From: an uncultured Gammaproteobacteria bacterium
Lineage (GTDB): Bacteria; Patescibacteriota; Patescibacteriia; Magasanikbacterales; GWA2-37-8
DNA length: 64,000 bases
Assembly: GCA_964482695.1 (NCBI GenBank)
Contig: CAYZYP010000001.1
Span: 132,143-196,142, forward strand
Reading direction: 5' to 3'
The position numbers and the translations under genes are program-made. This document shows positions 18,844 through 58,210 of this stretch, one piece after another (the first letter of the stretch is position 1; the number at the start of each line of letters is the position of its first letter). The notes beneath the pieces were generated by a model that was given only the letters and a program-made list of their open reading frames with translations, ran no database searches and was not told where the DNA came from.

Positions 18844-18893
18844 AGGAGGTTAAAATTTTGGCAAAGAAGCACGCGTAAATGTTATTTCTTGCA

Positions 18894-19018
18894 CCAGCGA
18901 ACACATACATCTTTTTAGGAAAAAAAGCAGTTATCCGTTTGCCTTTTTGCCTACGTTTACACTTGGCAAAAAGTTTTCCGACCACTTTTTTTCCTAAAAA
19001 GATGTATGTGTTCGCTGG
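18894..19018. repeat. Intergenic palindromic element, copy 1 (conserved core shared with 52911-53024)
   Basis: About 34-bp perfect outer inverted repeat (CCAGCGAACACATACATCTTTTTAGGAAAAAAA / rc) enclosing core AAAGCAGTTATCCGTTTGCCTTTTTGCC ... GGCAAAAAGTTTTCCGACCACTTTTTT. Confidence 0.7.
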
Positions 19019-19047
19019 TAAGTTATAAAAAGTTAGTATTTTAATTT

Positions 19048-23759: not shown

Positions 23760-24590
23760 ATGCATGATATAAACACTATTATTGTAAATTATAAAAGCAA
23801 AGAAGAAATTTTGCGCTGTTTGCGTTCTTTGTTTTCTGATGTAAAAAATTCCGATTTTAGTATCCACGTCACTATAATTGACAACGCCTCTGACGACGGT
23901 GTAGATTTGGCGGTTTTAAAACAACACCCAGACGCCAAATTAAAAATTATTAAACATAAGAAGAATTTAGGTTTTGGCAAAGCGCAAAATTCCGGGATAA
24001 AAGGTCTAGACGCTAAATACCATTTCGTGCTTAATCCTGATACTTTTTTTCCGGAAAACCAAGAAGTTTTGCGCAAATTGTATAATTTCATGGAAGCCAA
24101 CACGCGAGTGGGTATAGTCGCGCCAAAAATTATCCATCCAGATGGCAATTTACAAAATTCTTGTTATCGGTTTCCTAAATTTTTACAGCCAGTTTACAGT
24201 CGTACTAAATTAGGCACTATTGGCCAAGGCAAAAAAACAGCTGATTATTATTTTATGCGTGATTTTGATCATAATGAAACTTTGCCAGTAGACTGGGTAA
24301 TGGGCGCAGCCATGTTTGTTCGGCAAAAAGCGATTGATGAAGTTGGTCTATTTGACGAACGTTTTTGGATGTATGCCGAAGATAGCGACTGGTGCCGTCG
24401 AATGTGGGAAAAAAGTTGGCTGGTATATTATCTTCATGACGCGGTTATTCATCACGAACACCGCCGCGATTCGGCCAAAATACAAGGTATTTTTAAAGCA
24501 CTCATTAAAAACAAGTTAGCGCGGACGCATTTGATGAGTTGGTTAAAATATATGTGGAAGTGGCGCAAGACGCATAAATATTATGTCTAA
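23760..24590 (+). CDS. Glycosyltransferase family 2
   Basis: IIVNYKSKEEIL...IIDNASDDG...FVLNPDT motifs. Confidence 0.8.
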   Translation: MHDINTIIVNYKSKEEILRCLRSLFSDVKNSDFSIHVTIIDNASDDGVDLAVLKQHPDAKLKIIKHKKNLGFGKAQNSGIKGLDAKYHFVLNPDTFFPENQEVLRKLYNFMEANTRVGIVAPKIIHPDGNLQNSCYRFPKFLQPVYSRTKLGTIGQGKKTADYYFMRDFDHNETLPVDWVMGAAMFVRQKAIDEVGLFDERFWMYAEDSDWCRRMWEKSWLVYYLHDAVIHHEHRRDSAKIQGIFKALIKNKLARTHLMSWLKYMWKWRKTHKYYV

Positions 24591-24601
24591 AGTTTAGTTT
24601 A

Positions 24602-24735
24602 CTGTCATCCCGAAGGAGCGTCACAGCGACTGAGGGATCTCTGTCTCAAATCAACAACGGTTTTATTTACGCAGTGAAGTGAGAGAGTACCCTTTATTGT
24701 GACAGAGATTCCTCGCCTTTGGCTCGGAATGACAA
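24602..24735. repeat. ORF-less inverted-repeat element (MITE-like) of the TTGTCATYCYGAG family
   Basis: Left arm CTGTCATCCCGAAGGAGCG...GAGGGATCTCTGTCTC; right arm GTGACAGAGATTCCTCGCC...GGCTCGGAATGACAA (imperfect reverse complement). Confidence 0.6.
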
Positions 24736-24744
24736 TTGTCTTCT

Positions 24745-25833
24745 ATGTTTAGTAAAAAATTGGCTTTGATTTATCTTTCTTATCATCCCGATCATTATCT
24801 GGATAATTTTATCAGTGGCTTGAAAAATATAGATTATCCAAAAGAAAGTTTAACAGTAGTGGTCGTTGACCAAATTCATCCAGATTTTGGCTCTTCGGAA
24901 AGTGTTTTAAAAGAAAAATTATTACCAATTGCTAACGTAGAAATACCGCCAGTTGTTATCTTGCCTCAAGAAAAAAACTTAGGTTTTGCCGGCGGCAATA
25001 ACATCGGTATTAAATGGGCATTAGACAATGGCTTTGATTATGTTTTTTTACATAATCAAGATGGTTTTGTAGAAAAAGATACAATTTTTAAATTAATTAC
25101 AGTAATGGAGAATGACAAAACAATCGGCGTGGCGCAAGCGTTGATTTTGCTTCACCCAGAAAATAATTTGATAAATAGCGCTGGCAATTGTTTCCATTAT
25201 TTAGGTTTTGGTTATAGCGGCGATTATCGAGTAGAAAAAAATAGTTTTAATCTCAGAGAAACAACAAACGTTGGGTATGCCAGTGGCGCGGCTATGATGT
25301 TGCGGTCGGATTTACTTGAAAAATTTGGTTTATTAGACGAAGATTTTGTTTCTTATCACGAGGATTTGGAATATTGTTTGCGTTTAAAGTCGGTTGGTTA
25401 TCGCGCAGTGTTAGTACCAACCGCTATTTTTTATCATCAATATAATTTTGGTAAAAACAAAGACAAATATTATTTAATGGAACGCAACCGCTATGGTTTG
25501 ATGTTGATGTACTTTAAATGGCCGACTTTGATTTTATTATTGCCAATGGCTCTAGTGGTTGAATCAGGCCTCTTGCTATTTGCCTTAAAAAGTGGTTGGA
25601 TAAAAGATAAGTTAATGGCCTATAGTTATTGGTTGCAATATAAAAATTGGCAAAAATGGCTTAATAAACGGCAAAAAATACAAACGCAGAGAGTAAAAAG
25701 TGATAAAGAAATATTAAAGTTCGCGGTTAGTAAGATAGAGTTTGAAGATATTGATAATTGGTTATTAAAATATTTAGGCAATCCGATAATGAAAATTTAT
25801 TGGATAATAACGAAAATATTAATTTGGTGGTGA
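24745..25833 (+). CDS. Glycosyltransferase family 2 with C-terminal membrane segments
   Basis: GT2 motifs (LPQEKNLGFAGGNNIG, DxD region HNQDG); start moved to first in-frame ATG, just after the repeat element. Confidence 0.75.
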   Translation: MFSKKLALIYLSYHPDHYLDNFISGLKNIDYPKESLTVVVVDQIHPDFGSSESVLKEKLLPIANVEIPPVVILPQEKNLGFAGGNNIGIKWALDNGFDYVFLHNQDGFVEKDTIFKLITVMENDKTIGVAQALILLHPENNLINSAGNCFHYLGFGYSGDYRVEKNSFNLRETTNVGYASGAAMMLRSDLLEKFGLLDEDFVSYHEDLEYCLRLKSVGYRAVLVPTAIFYHQYNFGKNKDKYYLMERNRYGLMLMYFKWPTLILLLPMALVVESGLLLFALKSGWIKDKLMAYSYWLQYKNWQKWLNKRQKIQTQRVKSDKEILKFAVSKIEFEDIDNWLLKYLGNPIMKIYWIITKILIWW

Positions 25834-25843
25834 TATTTTATCA

Positions 25844-26220
25844 TTGTCATCCCGAGCCGCAGCGAGGGATCTCTGTCTCAATTATTTATGATTAAAAGGA
25901 GGAACCATAATTATTATGTTTATATAATGGCCAGTGTAAGTTTTATAATGTATATAGGTGTTACTAATAATTTAATTAGAAGAGCAGAAGAGCACAAACA
26001 AGAAATATTAGATGGTTTTAGTAAAAAATATAAAACAAAAAAATTAGTTTATTATGAATGGTTTATTAATATCAATGATGCCATTAGAAGAGAAAAAGAA
26101 TTAAAAGGTTGGCGTAGGGAAAAGAAGATAAATTTAATTAGAAGCGCTAATCCTCGGTGGGAAGATTTGTACAAAGAGTTGATTGAGACAGAGATCCCTC
26201 GCTGCGGCTCGGGATGACAG
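25844..26220. mobile_element. Compact GIY-YIG element bounded by perfect 35-bp terminal inverted repeats
   Basis: Left end TTGTCATCCCGAGCCGCAGCGAGGGATCTCTGTCTC (25844-25879); its exact reverse complement at 26185-26220; the enclosed ORF ends inside the right repeat. Confidence 0.6.
25888..26217 (+). CDS. GIY-YIG nuclease-superfamily protein
   Basis: YYVYIMAS...MYIGVTNNLIRRAEEHK matches the GIY-YIG core (Y-VYIL ... YIG-T-NL-RR--EH). Confidence 0.8.
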   Translation: MIKRRNHNYYVYIMASVSFIMYIGVTNNLIRRAEEHKQEILDGFSKKYKTKKLVYYEWFININDAIRREKELKGWRREKKINLIRSANPRWEDLYKELIETEIPRCGSG

Positions 26221-26269
26221 TATGAATGTGTCTTATGAATGAGACAAACGCATTTTAATTTAATGATGT

Positions 26270-27310
26270 ATGTCAAAAATAACCAAAGCAATTTTAACCG
26301 GTGGTGGCAGGGCGACAAGGTTGCGGCCGATTACTACAACAATAAACAAACACCTTATCCCGTTGGCGAACAAACCAATGATTTTTCACGCTATTGAAAA
26401 AGTGGTTAAAGCCGGTGTTAAAGAAATTTTTATTAATATTAATCCAGGAGAAACTGAACTGCAAAAGCAAGTTGGCGATGGTAGTCGGTGGGGTGTAAAA
26501 ATAGTGTTTTTTGAGCAAGAAGGCGGGCCACAAGGCATCGCGCACGTTGTGAGTCGTGCACAGAAATTTATTGGCAATGACCCGTTCATGTTTTATCTAT
26601 CTGATAATATTATTCTAGCTGATTTAAATGAAATGGTGCAGAAATTTGTCTCTGGTAGTTATGATTGTATGTTGGCCTTTGCCAAAGTATTAGATCCAGA
26701 AAGATTTGGCGTGCCCTTTTTTGATGATCAAGGGAAATTGATTGATGTGGTAGAAAAACCGCTCCAACCACCGAATAATTTGGCGGTTACTGGTATTTAT
26801 TTATATGGCCAAGGCGTATTTTTTGAAGCATATGATAATATTAAAAAAAGTGATCGCGGTGAATACGAAATTTCTAGTATTCACTCCTACTTTCTTAAAA
26901 AAGGTTTGCCGGTTGGTTATCAAGAGATTACCGGTTGGTGGAAAGACACCGGCAAGCCAGATGATTTACTAATAGCTAATGGGCTACTTATGGATCAATT
27001 AGAATTTCCAAAAGACGGCTATTTGATTGGTGAAAAAACACAGATTATTGGTAATACAAAAGTTTTTGGGCCAGCTATTATTGGTAAAAATTGTCAGTTA
27101 GAAAATTGTCAAATTGGTCAACATGTTAGTTTGGGCGATAATTGTGTTTTTAAAAATGTATCTATCAAAAATTCATTAATATTTAATGATTGTGTTTTAG
27201 ACGGCAGTTATAGTATAGAGGATAGTATTATTGGCAAAGGTTCGCGAGTAAAGAAAAACGATGGCCAACTTCACCGACTAATTTTAGGAGACAATACAGT
27301 GGTAGAATGA
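26270..27310 (+). CDS. rfbA: Glucose-1-phosphate thymidylyltransferase-like nucleotidyltransferase (long form with beta-helix C-terminus)
   Basis: AILTGGGRATRLRPITTTINKHLIP nucleotidyltransferase signature; C-terminal hexapeptide-repeat region. Confidence 0.75.
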   Translation: MSKITKAILTGGGRATRLRPITTTINKHLIPLANKPMIFHAIEKVVKAGVKEIFININPGETELQKQVGDGSRWGVKIVFFEQEGGPQGIAHVVSRAQKFIGNDPFMFYLSDNIILADLNEMVQKFVSGSYDCMLAFAKVLDPERFGVPFFDDQGKLIDVVEKPLQPPNNLAVTGIYLYGQGVFFEAYDNIKKSDRGEYEISSIHSYFLKKGLPVGYQEITGWWKDTGKPDDLLIANGLLMDQLEFPKDGYLIGEKTQIIGNTKVFGPAIIGKNCQLENCQIGQHVSLGDNCVFKNVSIKNSLIFNDCVLDGSYSIEDSIIGKGSRVKKNDGQLHRLILGDNTVVE

Positions 27311-27476
27311 ATTAGTAAACAGAATCATTGCTAATTTTATAAATAAGCTGTATAATATTAGCAGAGGATACAACGAATCGCGCTTAGTACCAATGAATTA
27401 CATAAATAAAATAGTGTCATTCACGAAGTCGAAAGCGCATTCGTAGTATCTGCGTTTAAAAAATTAATCATATTTT

Positions 27477-27827
27477 ATGGAAGAAAACAAACAAACAGTT
27501 GCTCCACAAGAGCCAAAGGCCGAGGAGCCAAAAAAGATTGATCAAAAAAATACCGCTATGGCGGTGGTAGCATATATTTTATTCTTTGTGCCACTCTTAA
27601 CAGAAGCTAAAAACGATCCGTTTGTAAAATATCATGTTAAGCAAGGTTTGGTAGTATTTTTAATTGGCATCGCGGTGGCAGTACTCAGCCCGTTTATTTG
27701 GATGATCAGCTGGCTTTTACAGCTTGGTTTGTTAGTTTTGGTGGTATTAGGAATTGTGAACGCTTTAAACGGCAAACAAGAACCATTGCCGGTAGTTGGC
27801 GGTTTAGCAGAGAAGTTTAAATTTTAG
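27477..27827 (+). CDS. Small membrane protein (DUF4870-like)
   Basis: AYILFFVPLL...NDPFVKYHVKQGLVVFLIG pattern; 2-3 TM helices. Confidence 0.5.
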   Translation: MEENKQTVAPQEPKAEEPKKIDQKNTAMAVVAYILFFVPLLTEAKNDPFVKYHVKQGLVVFLIGIAVAVLSPFIWMISWLLQLGLLVLVVLGIVNALNGKQEPLPVVGGLAEKFKF

Positions 27828-27842
27828 ATTAAAGAAAAATAT

Positions 27843-27875
27843 AAAAAAGACGCCTATAAATTAGGCGTCTTTTTG
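27843..27875. terminator. Bidirectional rho-independent terminator
   Basis: AAGACGCCT-ataaatt-AGGCGTCTT followed by TTTT; A-tract on the other side. Confidence 0.6.
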
Positions 27876-27890
27876 AGTATTAATATTTTT

Positions 27891-29135
27891 TTAGAGATTA
27901 GGGTATAATGGAAATTTTTTCGTTAGTTCTATTACTTGTTGTTTAATACGGGCAAGTTTTTGTTCGTCTTGAAAATTTAAAATTGCTTCGTCAATCCAAC
28001 CGGCGATGATTTTCATTTCTGCTTCTTTCATACCGCGGGTGGTAAGAGCCGGTGTTCCCAAACGAATTCCAGAAGGATCCATTGGCGAACGCGGATCGTC
28101 GGGAATCATATTTTTATTAACAGTTATACCGGCTTTATCCAAAGCGATTTGTGCCTGCTTGCCACTAACTCCTTTGGGTGTTACGTCCATCAATATTAAA
28201 TGATTGTCAGTGCCGCCAAAACAAAGTTTGTAGCCACGCGTTTTAAATTCATCTTCTAGCGCCTTGGCGTTCTTTTTTATTTGTTTAGCGTATTCTTTAA
28301 ATTCTGGGAGCATCGCTTCTTTGAAAGCAACAGCTTTGGCCGCGATATTATTTTCGTGCGGCCCGCCCTGGAAGCCGGGAAAGACTGATTTGTCTATTTG
28401 TTTGGCCCATTTTTCTTTGCACATAATCATGCCGCCTCTTGGCCCGCGCAATGTTTTGTGCGTAGTTGTTGTTACGACGTCAAAAATCGGCACTGGATTA
28501 TTCATTTCACCAGCAGCTATTAGCCCGGCAATATGAGCAATGTCGGCCATGGTAATAGCGTTTACTTCGTTGGCAATAGTTTGAATTATGGCATAATCAA
28601 TCTCTCGCGAATAAGCAGAATAGCCAACTAGAATTATTTTTGGCTTATGTTCTATAGCCATTTGACGCAAATTTTCATAATCAATCTCACCCTGAGCGGT
28701 TGTTTTGTAGCGGATAAATTTAAAAATTTTTGTCATGTATGTCACCGGATGTCCGTGAGTTAAATGTCCGCCATGAGATAAATCCATGCCCAGTACCGTG
28801 TCGCCAGGTTCAAGCAAAGCAAAATACACCGCGATGTTAGCCGGAGCTCCAGATAATGGTTGAACATTAACATGCTCGGCGCCAAATAATTGTTTTGCCC
28901 GATCTATGGCCGCTTTTTCCACTTCATCAATAAATTCACAACCACCATAATAACGTCGGCCAACATAGCCTTCTGAATATTTATTGGTTAAAACCGAGCC
29001 CAAAGTTTCTAACACCGCCGGAGATACAAAATTTTCCGAAGGAATCATCTCTAGCCCTTCTTCTTGACGTTTAAGTTCATTTTTAATGGCCTGTTTGATT
29101 TCCGGATCAAATTGAGCCAATGTTTGTTTGTTCAT
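27891..29135 (-). CDS. glyA: Serine hydroxymethyltransferase
   Basis: Full-length collinear SHMT ([28 protein letters not shown] ... PLP-lysine region [11 protein letters not shown]). Confidence 0.95.
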
Positions 29136-34346: not shown

Positions 34347-34438
34347 TTGTCATTTCGAGCGAAGCGAGAAATCTCTGTCTCAATTACTGATTTTAAATAT
34401 ATCGAGACAGAGATCCCTCACTGCGGTTCGGGATGACA
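34347..34438. repeat. ORF-less inverted-repeat element (MITE-like), same family as GIY-YIG element ends
   Basis: TTGTCATTTCGAGCGAAGCGAGAAATCTCTGTCTC ... GAGACAGAGATCCCTCACTGCGGTTCGGGATGACA with only a 17-nt spacer. Confidence 0.65.
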
Positions 34439-46612: not shown

Positions 46613-46686
46613 TGTCATCCCCGCGTAAGCGGGGATTCAGTTAGTAAAATAGTATGGGCTGGATTCCCGCTTACGCGGGAATGATA
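46613..46686. repeat. Degenerate member of the TGTCATCC inverted-repeat family (paired hairpins)
   Basis: GTCATCCCCGCGTAAGCGGGGATTC ... GATTCCCGCTTACGCGGGAATGATA. Confidence 0.45.
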
Positions 46687-52750: not shown

Positions 52751-52910
52751 TCATAGGTTTTGCTAATGCTGGCAGGGTTAACCTGTTTAGCACCGTAAGG
52801 ACAGGACATGTCCTGTCCTACAACCAACAAGCACCTCTCGCGCAAGCGGGGGGTGTTTTGTTTTTTTGCTTTGACAGTTAGAGGATTTTAGTTTAAAATA
52901 ACATCAAGTA

Positions 52911-53024
52911 TTAGTGGCAAATACATATTTTTTTATAAAAAAGCAGTTATCCGTTTGCCTTTTTGCCTTTCGGCAAAAAGTTTTCCGACTACTTTTTTAT
53001 AAAAAAATATGTATTTGCCACTAA
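52911..53024. repeat. Intergenic palindromic element, copy 2
   Basis: 32-bp perfect outer inverted repeat TTAGTGGCAAATACATATTTTTTTATAAAAAA / rc enclosing the same core as copy 1 with a shorter inner loop (GCCTTTTTGCC-tttc-GGCAAAAAG). Confidence 0.7.
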
Positions 53025-53058
53025 TATAAAGCGTAAATTTTTTTTATTAATATTTTTT

Positions 53059-56844: not shown

Positions 56845-56917
56845 TCGGGCTGGCGGGACTTGAACCCGCGGCCTCATGGTCCCGAACCATGCGCGCTACC
56901 AACTGCGCTACAACCCG
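56845..56917 (-). tRNA. tRNA-Pro (anticodon CGG)
   Basis: CGGGTTG-TA-GCGCAGTTGGTAGCGC-G-CATGG-TTCGGGA-CCATG-AGGCC-GCGGG-TTCAAGT-CCCGC-CAGCCCG-A. Confidence 0.85.
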
Positions 56918-57010: not shown

Positions 57011-57163
57011 TTGTCATTCTGAGCAAAGCGCCCGCCTACCATCGCCTTCGGCTCAGGCCGATGGCGGGCAGGAAGAATCCCTTTCTGTTAAAGGCAGACT
57101 TGCCTCTGACGGAAACATCAAAAAAAGGATCCTTCGGTCGCTAGTGCTCCCTCAGGATGACAA
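57011..57163. repeat. GC-rich structured insertion with TTGTCATTCTGAGC...CTCAGGATGACAA termini
   Basis: Same terminal motif family as the GIY-YIG element; interior has nested hairpin GCCCGCC-ta-CCATCG-14 nt-CGATGG-CGGGC. Confidence 0.5.
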
Positions 57164-57178
57164 ACAATTTTTAATTTT

Positions 57179-58210
57179 ATGAATCTAAAAGCCTATTTCA
57201 AACAAGCCATTAAACAAGAAGCTTCTGATTTGCATTTGGTTGGCGATGAATTGCCAATGATTAGAATAGAAGGTGAACTAAAAGAATTAGAAAGCAAAAA
57301 ATTAAATAATAGCGAATTAAAGACGGCAATAATGGGTTTGTTGTCTAAAGAACAGCAAAAAAAATACGAAGAAGAAATGGAGTTAGATTTTAGTTACGAG
57401 GTAGACAGCACGCGTTTCCGCGTTAATTTACATCAACAAAACGAAAATATAGGTTTAAGCGCCAGATTAGTACCCCAAGAGGTGCCATCGCCAGAAGATT
57501 TAGGCTTTGTACCTTCTTTGATAGATTTAACAAAAACTTTAGATGGTTTAGTTTTGGTAACTGGTCCAACAGGCTGCGGCAAATCTACTACCATAGCTTC
57601 TATAATAGAAGAAATTAATAAAACTCGTAGAGCCCATATTATTACAGTAGAAGACCCCATAGAATTTGTTTTTACCGATAAAAAAAGTTTGATTGAACAA
57701 AGAGAAATTGGCACTGATACCAAATCTTTTGCCAGCGCTTTAAAACATGTTTTACGCCAAGACCCAAACGTAATTTTTGTTGGTGAAATGCGCGACCCAG
57801 AAACAATTGCCACCGTGCTGACAGCGGCGGAAACAGGACATTTGGTATTTTCTACTCTGCATACGCCTAGCGCGGCCGAAGCGGTAGAGCGCATTGTTGA
57901 TGTTTTTGAAGGTTCGCGTCAAAAACAAGTTTTAATTCAGTTATCAACAGTATTAAGGGCTGTTGTAGCTCAACAGCTTTTGCCGTCTAAAGACGGTGGG
58001 CGAGTAGCTGCCAGAGAAATTTTAGTTAATACCCCGGCGGTCGCTAATTTAATACGTGAAAATAGTATCACCCAAATCAAATCAGCTATTCAAACCGGCG
58101 CCAAAGAAGGCATGATCACTATGGAAAATTCGGTTAAACAATTACTAAAAGATGGCTGGATAACAGAAGATATAGCTGACAGAAGAACAGGGAGAGTGAA
58201 GAAAGTATAA
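57179..58210 (+). CDS. pilT: Type IV pilus retraction ATPase PilT
   Basis: Walker A GPTGCGKSTT; GEMRD; AHLVFSTLHT. Confidence 0.9.
   Translation: MNLKAYFKQAIKQEASDLHLVGDELPMIRIEGELKELESKKLNNSELKTAIMGLLSKEQQKKYEEEMELDFSYEVDSTRFRVNLHQQNENIGLSARLVPQEVPSPEDLGFVPSLIDLTKTLDGLVLVTGPTGCGKSTTIASIIEEINKTRRAHIITVEDPIEFVFTDKKSLIEQREIGTDTKSFASALKHVLRQDPNVIFVGEMRDPETIATVLTAAETGHLVFSTLHTPSAAEAVERIVDVFEGSRQKQVLIQLSTVLRAVVAQQLLPSKDGGRVAAREILVNTPAVANLIRENSITQIKSAIQTGAKEGMITMENSVKQLLKDGWITEDIADRRTGRVKKV

Follow-up and report, generated by a model that had tools for sequence, protein, structure and literature searches.

A 375-bp unit at positions 25845–26219 of the DNA analysed here (64,000 nucleotides of contig CAYZYP010000001.1, hereafter the window) encloses a gene for a minimal GIY-YIG protein between two inverted, tagged hairpin repeats. 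We propose, with a probability of about 0.6, that this unit is an element of REPtron-like build, with a structure-selective GIY-YIG nuclease instead of the tyrosine transposase (RAYT) that is associated with repetitive extragenic palindromic (REP) sequences. The proposal is based on the anatomy of the unit, the covariation of its hairpins and the association of similar genes and hairpins across phyla. It also draws on sites that are filled in some genomes and empty in others, on a unit that diverged lineages came to share recently, and on a gene kept under purifying selection. The genome has a GC content of about 36%, and its genes have their closest relatives in Magasanikbacteria and other Patescibacteria.

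Anatomy of the GIY-YIG unit

A repeat search found that the two arms of the unit are 38 nt long, 100% complementary and 299 nt apart, and no arm matches were obtained in any of 100 dinucleotide-preserving shuffles. The original prediction, made from the sequence of the window, had described perfect 35-bp terminal inverted repeats around a 377-bp unit. The perfection of the repeats stood but the sizes changed, and the outermost T (25844) was excluded from the repeat because position 26220 is a G. Arms were scored with a covariance model, R1, built from 46 distinct 32-nt arms. The unit has the following parts:

25845–25882, plus strand: left arm, TGTC-AT-CCC-GA-GC-CGCA-GC-GA-GGG-AT-CTCTGTC with a CTCAAT extension that is also present in the right arm (R1: 44.6 bits, E = 1.6e-9)
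25888–26217, plus strand: gene for a 109-aa GIY-YIG protein, predicted Slx1/UPF0213 lineage, core residues 8–98, Pfam PF01541
26182–26219, minus strand: right arm, an inverted copy of the REP module of the left arm (R1: 44.6 bits)

The enclosed 109-aa GIY-YIG protein was recovered as predicted, matching PF01541 with 43.6 bits (cut-off 22.6; E = 3.7e-11) over profile positions 1–78 of 78. The ATG at 25888, 5 nt from the left arm, was taken as the start because homologues share the N-terminus NHNYYVYIM. The coordinates bear out the claim that the last 11 codons and the stop lie inside the right repeat: codons 99–109 and the TGA fall within the right arm, TGA being supplied by its terminal ATGACA. 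The residues encoded by the arm (99–109) are not conserved. The window contains one copy of the unit.

Hairpin structure and classification of the arms

The general form of the arm is TGTC-AT-YYY-GA, an inner stem with its loop, and GA-RRR-AT-CTCTGTC, giving a hairpin in which a conserved tandem G·A mismatch separates the 5-bp AT-YYY stem from an inner stem of 2 bp that closes a small loop. Of the nine stem positions, the first two are invariant A-T/T-A and two form the conserved G·A/A·G mismatch; the loop has 3–4 nt or carries insertions. The tag is TGTC in all strong arms of the window and CGTC in units of Sinorhizobium meliloti, Azospirillum, Neisseria and Aeromonas, and the tail is CTC(TGTC), or CCAG/TCAG in a sister type. 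In the 46 distinct arms, 97.2% of the cells were paired, compared with 83.9% in shuffles, and none of 500 shuffles reached the observed value. Double compensatory changes occurred at all five variable pairs (at columns 7/23, for example, 23 arms have CG and the other 23 have UA), and CG and UA were exchanged with almost no G·U intermediates. This scarcity of G·U pairs, together with the conserved tandem G·A mismatch, suggests that the structure is selected in DNA and is usable on either strand.

By their sequence the arms match a TGTC variant, with an interrupted stem, of the CGTC-tagged REP superfamily defined by Di Nocera, De Gregorio & Rocco 2013, BMC Genomics 14:522 (PMC3733652). Members of this superfamily have a CGTC tag that is often TGTC (also CCTC), a stem of 8–9 bp starting with complementary AT, a loop of 4–5 nt and short tails, and are mostly arranged as head-to-head dimers; they are intergenic and occur in several phyla, with hosts such as A. 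lipoferum, S. meliloti, Neisseria (dRS3) and Rickettsia (RPE-4, RPE-6) (PMC3733652). They "apparently lack a dedicated transposase", no class having been found associated with them, and are possibly nearing extinction (PMC3733652). The arms share with them the unpaired 5′ tag, the A-T stem start, a short tail, the head-to-head and intergenic arrangement and the spread over several phyla. In contrast, the main arm type of the window has a stem interrupted as 5 bp, tandem G·A mismatch and 2 bp, a longer conserved tail (CTCTGTC) and sometimes extra inserted helices, and it occurs in Patescibacteria and many phyla that are absent from the published list. A GIY-YIG gene adjoins the repeats here and in several host species of that survey, which reported no enzyme (PMC3733652). 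The predicted "terminal inverted repeats" are thus inverted repeats, but their identity as transposon termini was not borne out, as they are REP-type hairpin modules of a published superfamily.

The inverted termini and small copies without an open reading frame (ORF) resemble a miniature inverted-repeat transposable element or insertion sequence moved by a DDE transposase, and GC-rich hairpins in an AT-rich genome could suggest an intrinsic-terminator motif. Both explanations are effectively refuted. Target-site duplications, which the original prediction had suggested looking for, were not found: none of 15 element boundaries had boundary-adjacent direct repeats, and no transposase is enclosed. 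The covariation within each arm would be needless for a simple terminal inverted repeat. No terminator-like site was detected at any arm in 24400–26500, where the arms are followed by CTCTGTC and not by a T-tract. A repeat of about 7 nt (GTTTAGT) near the dimer at 24603 (described below) does not adjoin its ends and was not counted as a target-site duplication. Rfam 15 at gathering thresholds identified only two tRNAs in the window, and at E ≤ 5 over 24500–26400 it returned nothing meaningful. A promoter explanation for the arms was without support. At 24580–24608 (minus strand), the ATGACA that ends the arm and a CATAAT 17 nt beyond it together match a sigma-70 promoter at 10/12 positions, facing outward from the element; from this motif, element termini might supply −35 boxes.

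ORF-less dimers and distribution of the arms

A search of the window with R1 gave six strong arms forming three inverted pairs (24603/24701, 25845/26187 and 34348/34406) and a weak arm at 57127. The ORF-less relatives that the original prediction mentioned elsewhere in the window were found, together with a dimer of a sister family:

24603–24734: ORF-less head-to-head dimer (arms 24603–24645, plus; 24701–24734, minus), placed in the 5′ end of a GT2 gene, whose present start is 24736
34348–34438: ORF-less head-to-head dimer (arms 34348–34379, plus; 34406–34438, minus)
57040–57163: probable decayed dimer with one recognisable arm (57127–57162, minus; R1 18 bits, E = 0.02; relaxed scan)
46613–46684: sister-family head-to-head dimer, intergenic, of CGTC-1-like REPs, TGTC-ATCCCCGC-GTAA-GCGGGGAT-TCAG

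The inner ends of the 34348–34438 dimer (CTCAAT and ATCGAG) are those of the GIY unit, and its left arm shows compensatory stem changes, with TTC/GAA in place of CCC/GGG. In the 46613 dimer the stem has 8 bp and the loop 4 nt, exactly as defined for CGTC-1. Repeats of its type flank GIY-YIG genes in Azospirillum, Aeromonas and Neisseria; no GIY gene lies near it in the window.

The original prediction had proposed a search of genomes for the arm and for empty sites. The arms proved widespread: a scan of 185,579 species genomes matched at least 118 stretches, and among the matches listed the hosts were Gammaproteobacteria, Verrucomicrobia, Chloroflexi, Clostridia, Bacteroidia, Patescibacteria, Helicobacter and others. 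A relaxed search of 828 kb of arm-sampled loci detected 365 arms, with 123 head-to-head pairs (modal stem-to-stem gap 28 nt) against 14 tail-to-tail pairs. The arms avoid ORFs, since 26% of arm midpoints fell inside ORFs compared with 81.5% of bases (p = 3e-117). Only one arm match was obtained in 2.9 million viral contigs, and the near absence of arms from viral contigs suggests that the element is not phage-borne.

Association of GIY-YIG genes with tagged hairpins

Tagged hairpins were found directly beside homologous Slx1-lineage GIY genes, usually bracketing them, in all eight metagenomic contexts examined, which were sampled from the protein side. Loci with such arms include:

L001: syntenic relative
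L002 and L003: Magasanikbacteria
L136/L138: between two GT2 genes, GT2a and GT2b
L154–157: Rhodospirillaceae, between dnaN and recF
L158–163: Parcubacteria
L164: Ignavibacteriales
L018: Verrucomicrobiia, arms in direct orientation

Nine of 11 cultured hosts examined also showed the association, namely Planktothrix agardhii, Aeromonas caviae, Spirosoma, Rhizobium CIAT894, Novosphingobium, Sphingobium, S. meliloti (between gltA and lpxB; L169), Azospirillum lipoferum 4B (between sufB and sufC; L170) and N. gonorrhoeae (inside a dRS3 array). The stem sequences vary by lineage, and the tag and the bracket persist. The arm class follows the protein subfamily and not the host: the Rhodospirillaceae locus L154 has a GA-type TGTC arm and a protein 57% identical to that of the window, and Azospirillum, of the same order, has the CGTC-1 type and a 46%-identical protein. 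At least 46 of 104 C-terminal extensions of family representatives are translated arms. In homologues the gene runs into the equivalent arm in other reading frames, producing tails such as ...DRDPS..GMT and ..RSG, and many members begin or end in translated arms, including VILSAAKNL and ILRFAQND. Beside the intact GIY gene of S. meliloti lies an internally deleted copy consisting of a left arm, a 3′ gene fragment and a right arm, which shows how dimers can arise from full units. Full-text searches of open-access papers and preprints found no link of GIY-YIG proteins to these repeats, and an earlier description elsewhere is possible.

The gene might be a mere passenger in a repeat-rich intergenic spot, with the hairpins spread by another enzyme (IS200/RAYT-like or IS110/Piv-like) or by replication slippage. 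Such a coincidence would fit the majority of arms that have no adjoining GIY gene and the other small ORFs that some arm pairs enclose, and the dRS3 repeats of Neisseria are targets of Piv/IS110-type recombinases of Nf prophages. However, the bracket recurs in at least six phyla with the right arm overlapping the stop codon, the arm type tracks the protein subfamily across host boundaries, gene and arms are gained or absent jointly, and the deleted copy of S. meliloti is an intermediate between unit and dimer. The survey of CGTC REPs, moreover, associated no transposase of any class with them (PMC3733652). We thus regard a passenger gene as quite unlikely.

Several further observations were made on the GIY loci. 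GIY units recur between genes of conserved, highly expressed operons, and the sufB–sufC junction is occupied in two different families. The GIY gene runs in the direction of both its neighbours in the window, L154, L170 and Shinella; in L169, lpxB, which lies downstream, is encoded on the other strand. In Sphingomonas parapaucimobilis, a gene for a DUF559 (Vsr-like) nuclease occupies the sufB–sufC junction. A second, shorter GIY-YIG subfamily (MYYVYILEC...) was found at L002 10378–10626, L003 9620–9862 and L090 4399–4647. In Magasanikbacteria it directly follows the first GIY unit and precedes a PIF1-like helicase gene, with synteny kept; an arm type of its own was inconsistent across the three loci.

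Empty sites, polymorphism and recent sharing of the unit

The unit lies downstream of a GT2 glycosyltransferase gene (24736–25833, corresponding to GT2b) and upstream of a gene (26270–27310) for a 346-aa sugar-phosphate nucleotidyltransferase with a hexapeptide C-domain. The predicted position between a GT2 gene and rfbA was right for the former, but the latter is only rfbA-like, its product being longer than classical RmlA. A metagenome search with the GT2 protein retrieved relatives, 44–58% identical, that keep the order GT2a, GT2b and nucleotidyltransferase gene. The site is empty in at least seven of them, the GT2b stop lying 0–25 nt from the nucleotidyltransferase start; at this distance the relatives reveal empty sites and not exact insertion boundaries. 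Independent insertions were also seen: an ORF-less dimer occupies the same junction in L126, and in L136/L138 a GIY unit is present at the other junction.

A closer lineage, about 85% identical to the window (L001 and L167, from one JGI sample), has the GIY unit and lacks both ORF-less dimers. In L001, the GT2b ATG overlaps the GT2a stop, and the 24603 dimer of the window occupies what is the 5′ end of GT2b there. In L167, where the 34348 dimer is absent, 4 nt separate the methyltransferase stop from the following start codon. The elements of the window and L001 are 98.1% identical, compared with 83–90% for the flanks, and the high-identity tract extends from about 25806 to about 26300, i.e. 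about 40 and 80 nt past the arms. The synonymous divergence (dS) is 0.105 for the GIY gene and 1.04 for the adjacent nucleotidyltransferase gene. Therefore, the unit was shared far more recently than the host genes diverged. A second case of presence and absence was found in Azospirillum, where A. lipoferum 4B has a block of dimer, GIY gene and dimer between sufB and sufC; A. ramasamyi, A. oryzae, B510 and A. brasilense lack this block, their flanks being 90–97% identical. In Shinella sp. PSBB067 (1538453–1540038), a GIY gene lies inside that genome's own sufB–sufC interval.

With empty sites, polymorphic dimers, the contrast in dS and no target-site duplication, transposase or terminator, these results agree with the proposal of the original prediction that the unit is a selfish element, active now or recently, with a GIY-YIG nuclease and not a conventional transposase at its core; the nuclease itself would be the presumed driver of the mobility. 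The prediction had also named an opposing outcome, in which the arms would be a ubiquitous terminator motif irrespective of GIY-YIG genes and without insertion polymorphism. The arms are indeed ubiquitous and mostly without a GIY gene, but they are not terminators, they are polymorphic, and they flank GIY genes across phyla.

A free-standing homing endonuclease, recognising a specific host sequence at the empty site and spread by double-strand-break repair with the arms as incidental neighbours, would account for part of this pattern. The low dS and a high-identity tract reaching 40–80 nt into both flanks resemble co-conversion, the unit is at the same site in two diverged lineages, and the sufB–sufC junction is occupied repeatedly (Azospirillum 4B and Shinella). 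The protein shares its catalytic domain, insertion between conserved genes and low divergence relative to the flanks with GIY-YIG homing endonucleases such as I-TevI and Seg. Unlike these enzymes of about 250 aa, however, it consists of a catalytic domain of about 95 aa, with no linker or DNA-binding domain (NUMODs, zinc finger or helix-turn-helix), and it is not found in introns or phages. Its close relatives lie in unrelated contexts (dnaN and recF, gltA and lpxB, GT2 and nucleotidyltransferase genes, restriction-modification and DISARM), and homing would leave hundreds of ORF-less dimers and a conserved hairpin unexplained. We consider homing improbable.

Tandem "stutters", in which an outer half-arm and 10–20 nt of the outside flank are repeated two or three times beside a complete arm, were noticed at the following loci, with breakpoints in the hairpin apex:

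L001: 1806–1860
L168: 1190–1240 and 1955–2040
L018: 1000–1090
L164: 2880–2930 and 3310–3360

The stutters may be footprints of DNA breakage and re-synthesis.

The GIY-YIG protein

In alignments of 20 and 59 sequences, the catalytic-type residues Y10/Y12 (YVY), Y22-I-G24, R32, H36 and E69 were invariant or almost so, K73, W75 and R77 were also conserved, and N88 was nearly invariant. A C-terminal Asn is typical of the UvrC+ lineage (Dunin-Horkawicz 2006, PMC1564403). An AlphaFold2 model (pLDDT 85.8) has strands at 9–15, 21–26 and 52–59 together with helices, and the arm-encoded tail is disordered. Foldseek returned only GIY-YIG structures, with 1zg2 at E = 4e-4, Slx1 entries at a probability of about 1.0 and UvrC at E > 2; the best structural match was UPF0213 BH0048, followed by Slx1, with UvrC much weaker. 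In phmmer searches, 1zg2 (E = 0.004) and 1ywl were matched. These comparisons agree with a standalone minimal GIY-YIG domain of the Slx1 lineage (UPF0213), and the protein is a predicted nuclease. It resembles Slx1, At-HIGLE and UPF0213 (YhbQ-like) proteins in its best matches (1zg2, 1ywl and Slx1), its minimal standalone domain and its retained Y, Y, G, R, H and E residues. It differs from Slx1 in having neither a RING domain nor an Slx4 partner, and from UPF0213/Slx1-like proteins in that its gene is embedded in repeats and insertion-polymorphic. The standalone enzyme At-HIGLE, of the Slx1 lineage, is known to act as a homodimer in resolving Holliday junctions and cruciforms (PMC9071465). 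Prokaryotic Slx1-like proteins have been described as minimal, mostly vertically inherited and of unknown or repair functions, with no mention of repeats (Dunin-Horkawicz 2006, PMC1564403).

The protein has 557 homologues and, with E ≤ 1e-3, 11,784 clusters at 50% identity. NCBIfam and PADLOC searches gave no match, and the exact 109-aa protein was absent from the sequence records searched. A contig reached through a 96-aa version of the protein (L006, JGI 3300009296) is chimeric and was discarded: it is 100% identical to the window only over 25905–28936 and is joined at both ends to unrelated or 75%-identical sequence.

The GIY gene is under purifying selection, with ratios of nonsynonymous to synonymous substitution rates (dN/dS) of 0.1–0.3 across the family. 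Such selection is also what a domesticated system would show, in which the repeats benefit the host, for example through mRNA stability or chromosome structure, and the nuclease, as a host-beneficial processor of hairpins or cruciforms, is maintained without being selfish. RAYTs themselves have been argued to be domesticated, and the single GIY copy per replicon in most hosts, the syntenic conservation in L002/L003, the persistence of the unit in streamlined Patescibacteria genomes and the strongly intergenic arms point in the same direction. This caretaker role is set against a unit 98% identical between lineages whose flanking genes have a dS of about 1, against dimers that come and go between close lineages, one of them inserted in the 5′ end of a gene, and against protein subfamilies and arm types shared across phyla, which imply horizontal spread. 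It is, in our judgement, unlikely.

Proposed mechanism and comparison with REPtrons

In the REPtron-like reading, the unit would consist of a promoter-less gene for a minimal Slx1-lineage GIY-YIG nuclease, bracketed by inverted TGTC-tagged hairpin repeats. The hairpin would form in DNA, either in a single strand or in a cruciform extruded from a head-to-head dimer, and would be the structure that the nuclease recognises. The enzyme may, like Slx1 and At-HIGLE, cut branched or hairpin DNA, probably as a dimer. Strand transfer is beyond a GIY-YIG hydrolase, so any move, including copying into new intergenic sites or dimer-occupied sites, would have to be finished by the replication and repair machinery of the host. 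In one attractive variant, the gene-bearing copy would home into sites already holding dimers. The ORF-less dimers would be internal-deletion derivatives mobilised or maintained in trans, a role like that of REPINs for RAYTs. The activity of the nuclease, its action on hairpins, its site of cleavage and the route of the copies to new sites are all presumed in this scheme.

The likeness to REPtrons and REPIN–RAYT systems (GTAG-tagged REPs with an IS200-like HUH enzyme) lies in a low-copy enzyme gene between inverted tagged hairpins, many ORF-less head-to-head doublets in intergenic DNA, the lack of target-site duplication and a covarying hairpin. Unlike in REPtrons, the enzyme is a predicted GIY-YIG hydrolase and not an HUH/Y1 transposase, and hence no covalent DNA intermediate is expected; the tag is (C/T)GTC and not GTAG, and both the enzyme subfamily and the repeat type are common to several phyla. 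Judged from its sequence, the enclosed protein is a GIY-YIG protein only, so that the unit would stand outside the REPtrons proper and be REPtron-like in architecture.

Several points weigh against this reading. GIY homologues of Photobacterium and R. tumorigenes, the remaining two of the 11 cultured hosts, had no obvious arms. The 828 kb of arm-sampled DNA contained a single cognate GIY gene, adjoining arms, and most arms were far from any GIY gene; by analogy, arms outnumbering genes would be the ratio expected for a REP/RAYT-like system. The orientation is not uniform, as the arms of L018 are direct and in Neisseria and Azospirillum whole dimers flank the gene, which is not set within a split dimer. 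A few inverted arm pairs also surround other small ORFs, a HicA-like one of 86 aa (L107 1461–2146) and an XRE-HTH-like one of 96 aa (L019 4574–5270), which could reflect cargo capture or two separate elements flanking a gene. The units of L002 and L003 are at a syntenic position, indicating that some copies are vertically inherited. A single arm folded as DNA with nearest-neighbour parameters is a weak hairpin (−1.9 to −4.3 kcal/mol), no better than shuffles, and for this reason the case for the hairpin is based on covariation and not on thermodynamics; the 34348–34438 dimer as single-stranded DNA reached −18.3 kcal/mol (z = −4.3). The recognition of the hairpin by the protein is a prediction from the sequences. 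Finally, we know of no way in which a hydrolytic GIY-YIG nuclease integrates DNA, and the copying step is speculative.

Other features of the window

The probable decayed dimer at 57040–57163 is located between a tRNA gene (56845–56917) and a gene starting at 57179. Two AT-rich inverted repeats are unrelated to the arms:

18893–19019: 35-nt arms, 100% complementarity, 57-nt spacer
52909–53026: 39-nt arms, 97% complementarity, 40-nt spacer

Implications

CGTC palindromes are abundant in important bacteria, among them Neisseria, rhizobia, Azospirillum, Rickettsia and Wolbachia. The GIY-YIG family is a strong candidate for mobilising CGTC/TGTC repeats, and a large family of small nucleases (about 11,800 clusters at 50% identity) with adjoining repeats makes this candidate concrete and testable. 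Tentatively, at somewhat less than even odds, Slx1-lineage GIY-YIG nucleases could be the missing dedicated enzymes of the whole CGTC/TGTC REP superfamily, including Neisseria dRS3/NIME, the rhizobial and Azospirillum palindromes and possibly the Rickettsia RPEs. To our knowledge, no function has been assigned to prokaryotic UPF0213/YhbQ/Slx1-like proteins, although structures were solved as early as 2005, and the link to repeats, if true, would suggest one.

If the proposal is true, the unit would represent a new class of prokaryotic mobile element, whose sole encoded function is a hydrolytic, structure-selective nuclease acting on hairpins or cruciforms, and a route of DNA mobility that needs neither a transposase nor a recombinase. 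Such elements would have been recently active even in the streamlined genomes of Patescibacteria, inserting into operons and even into the starts of genes.

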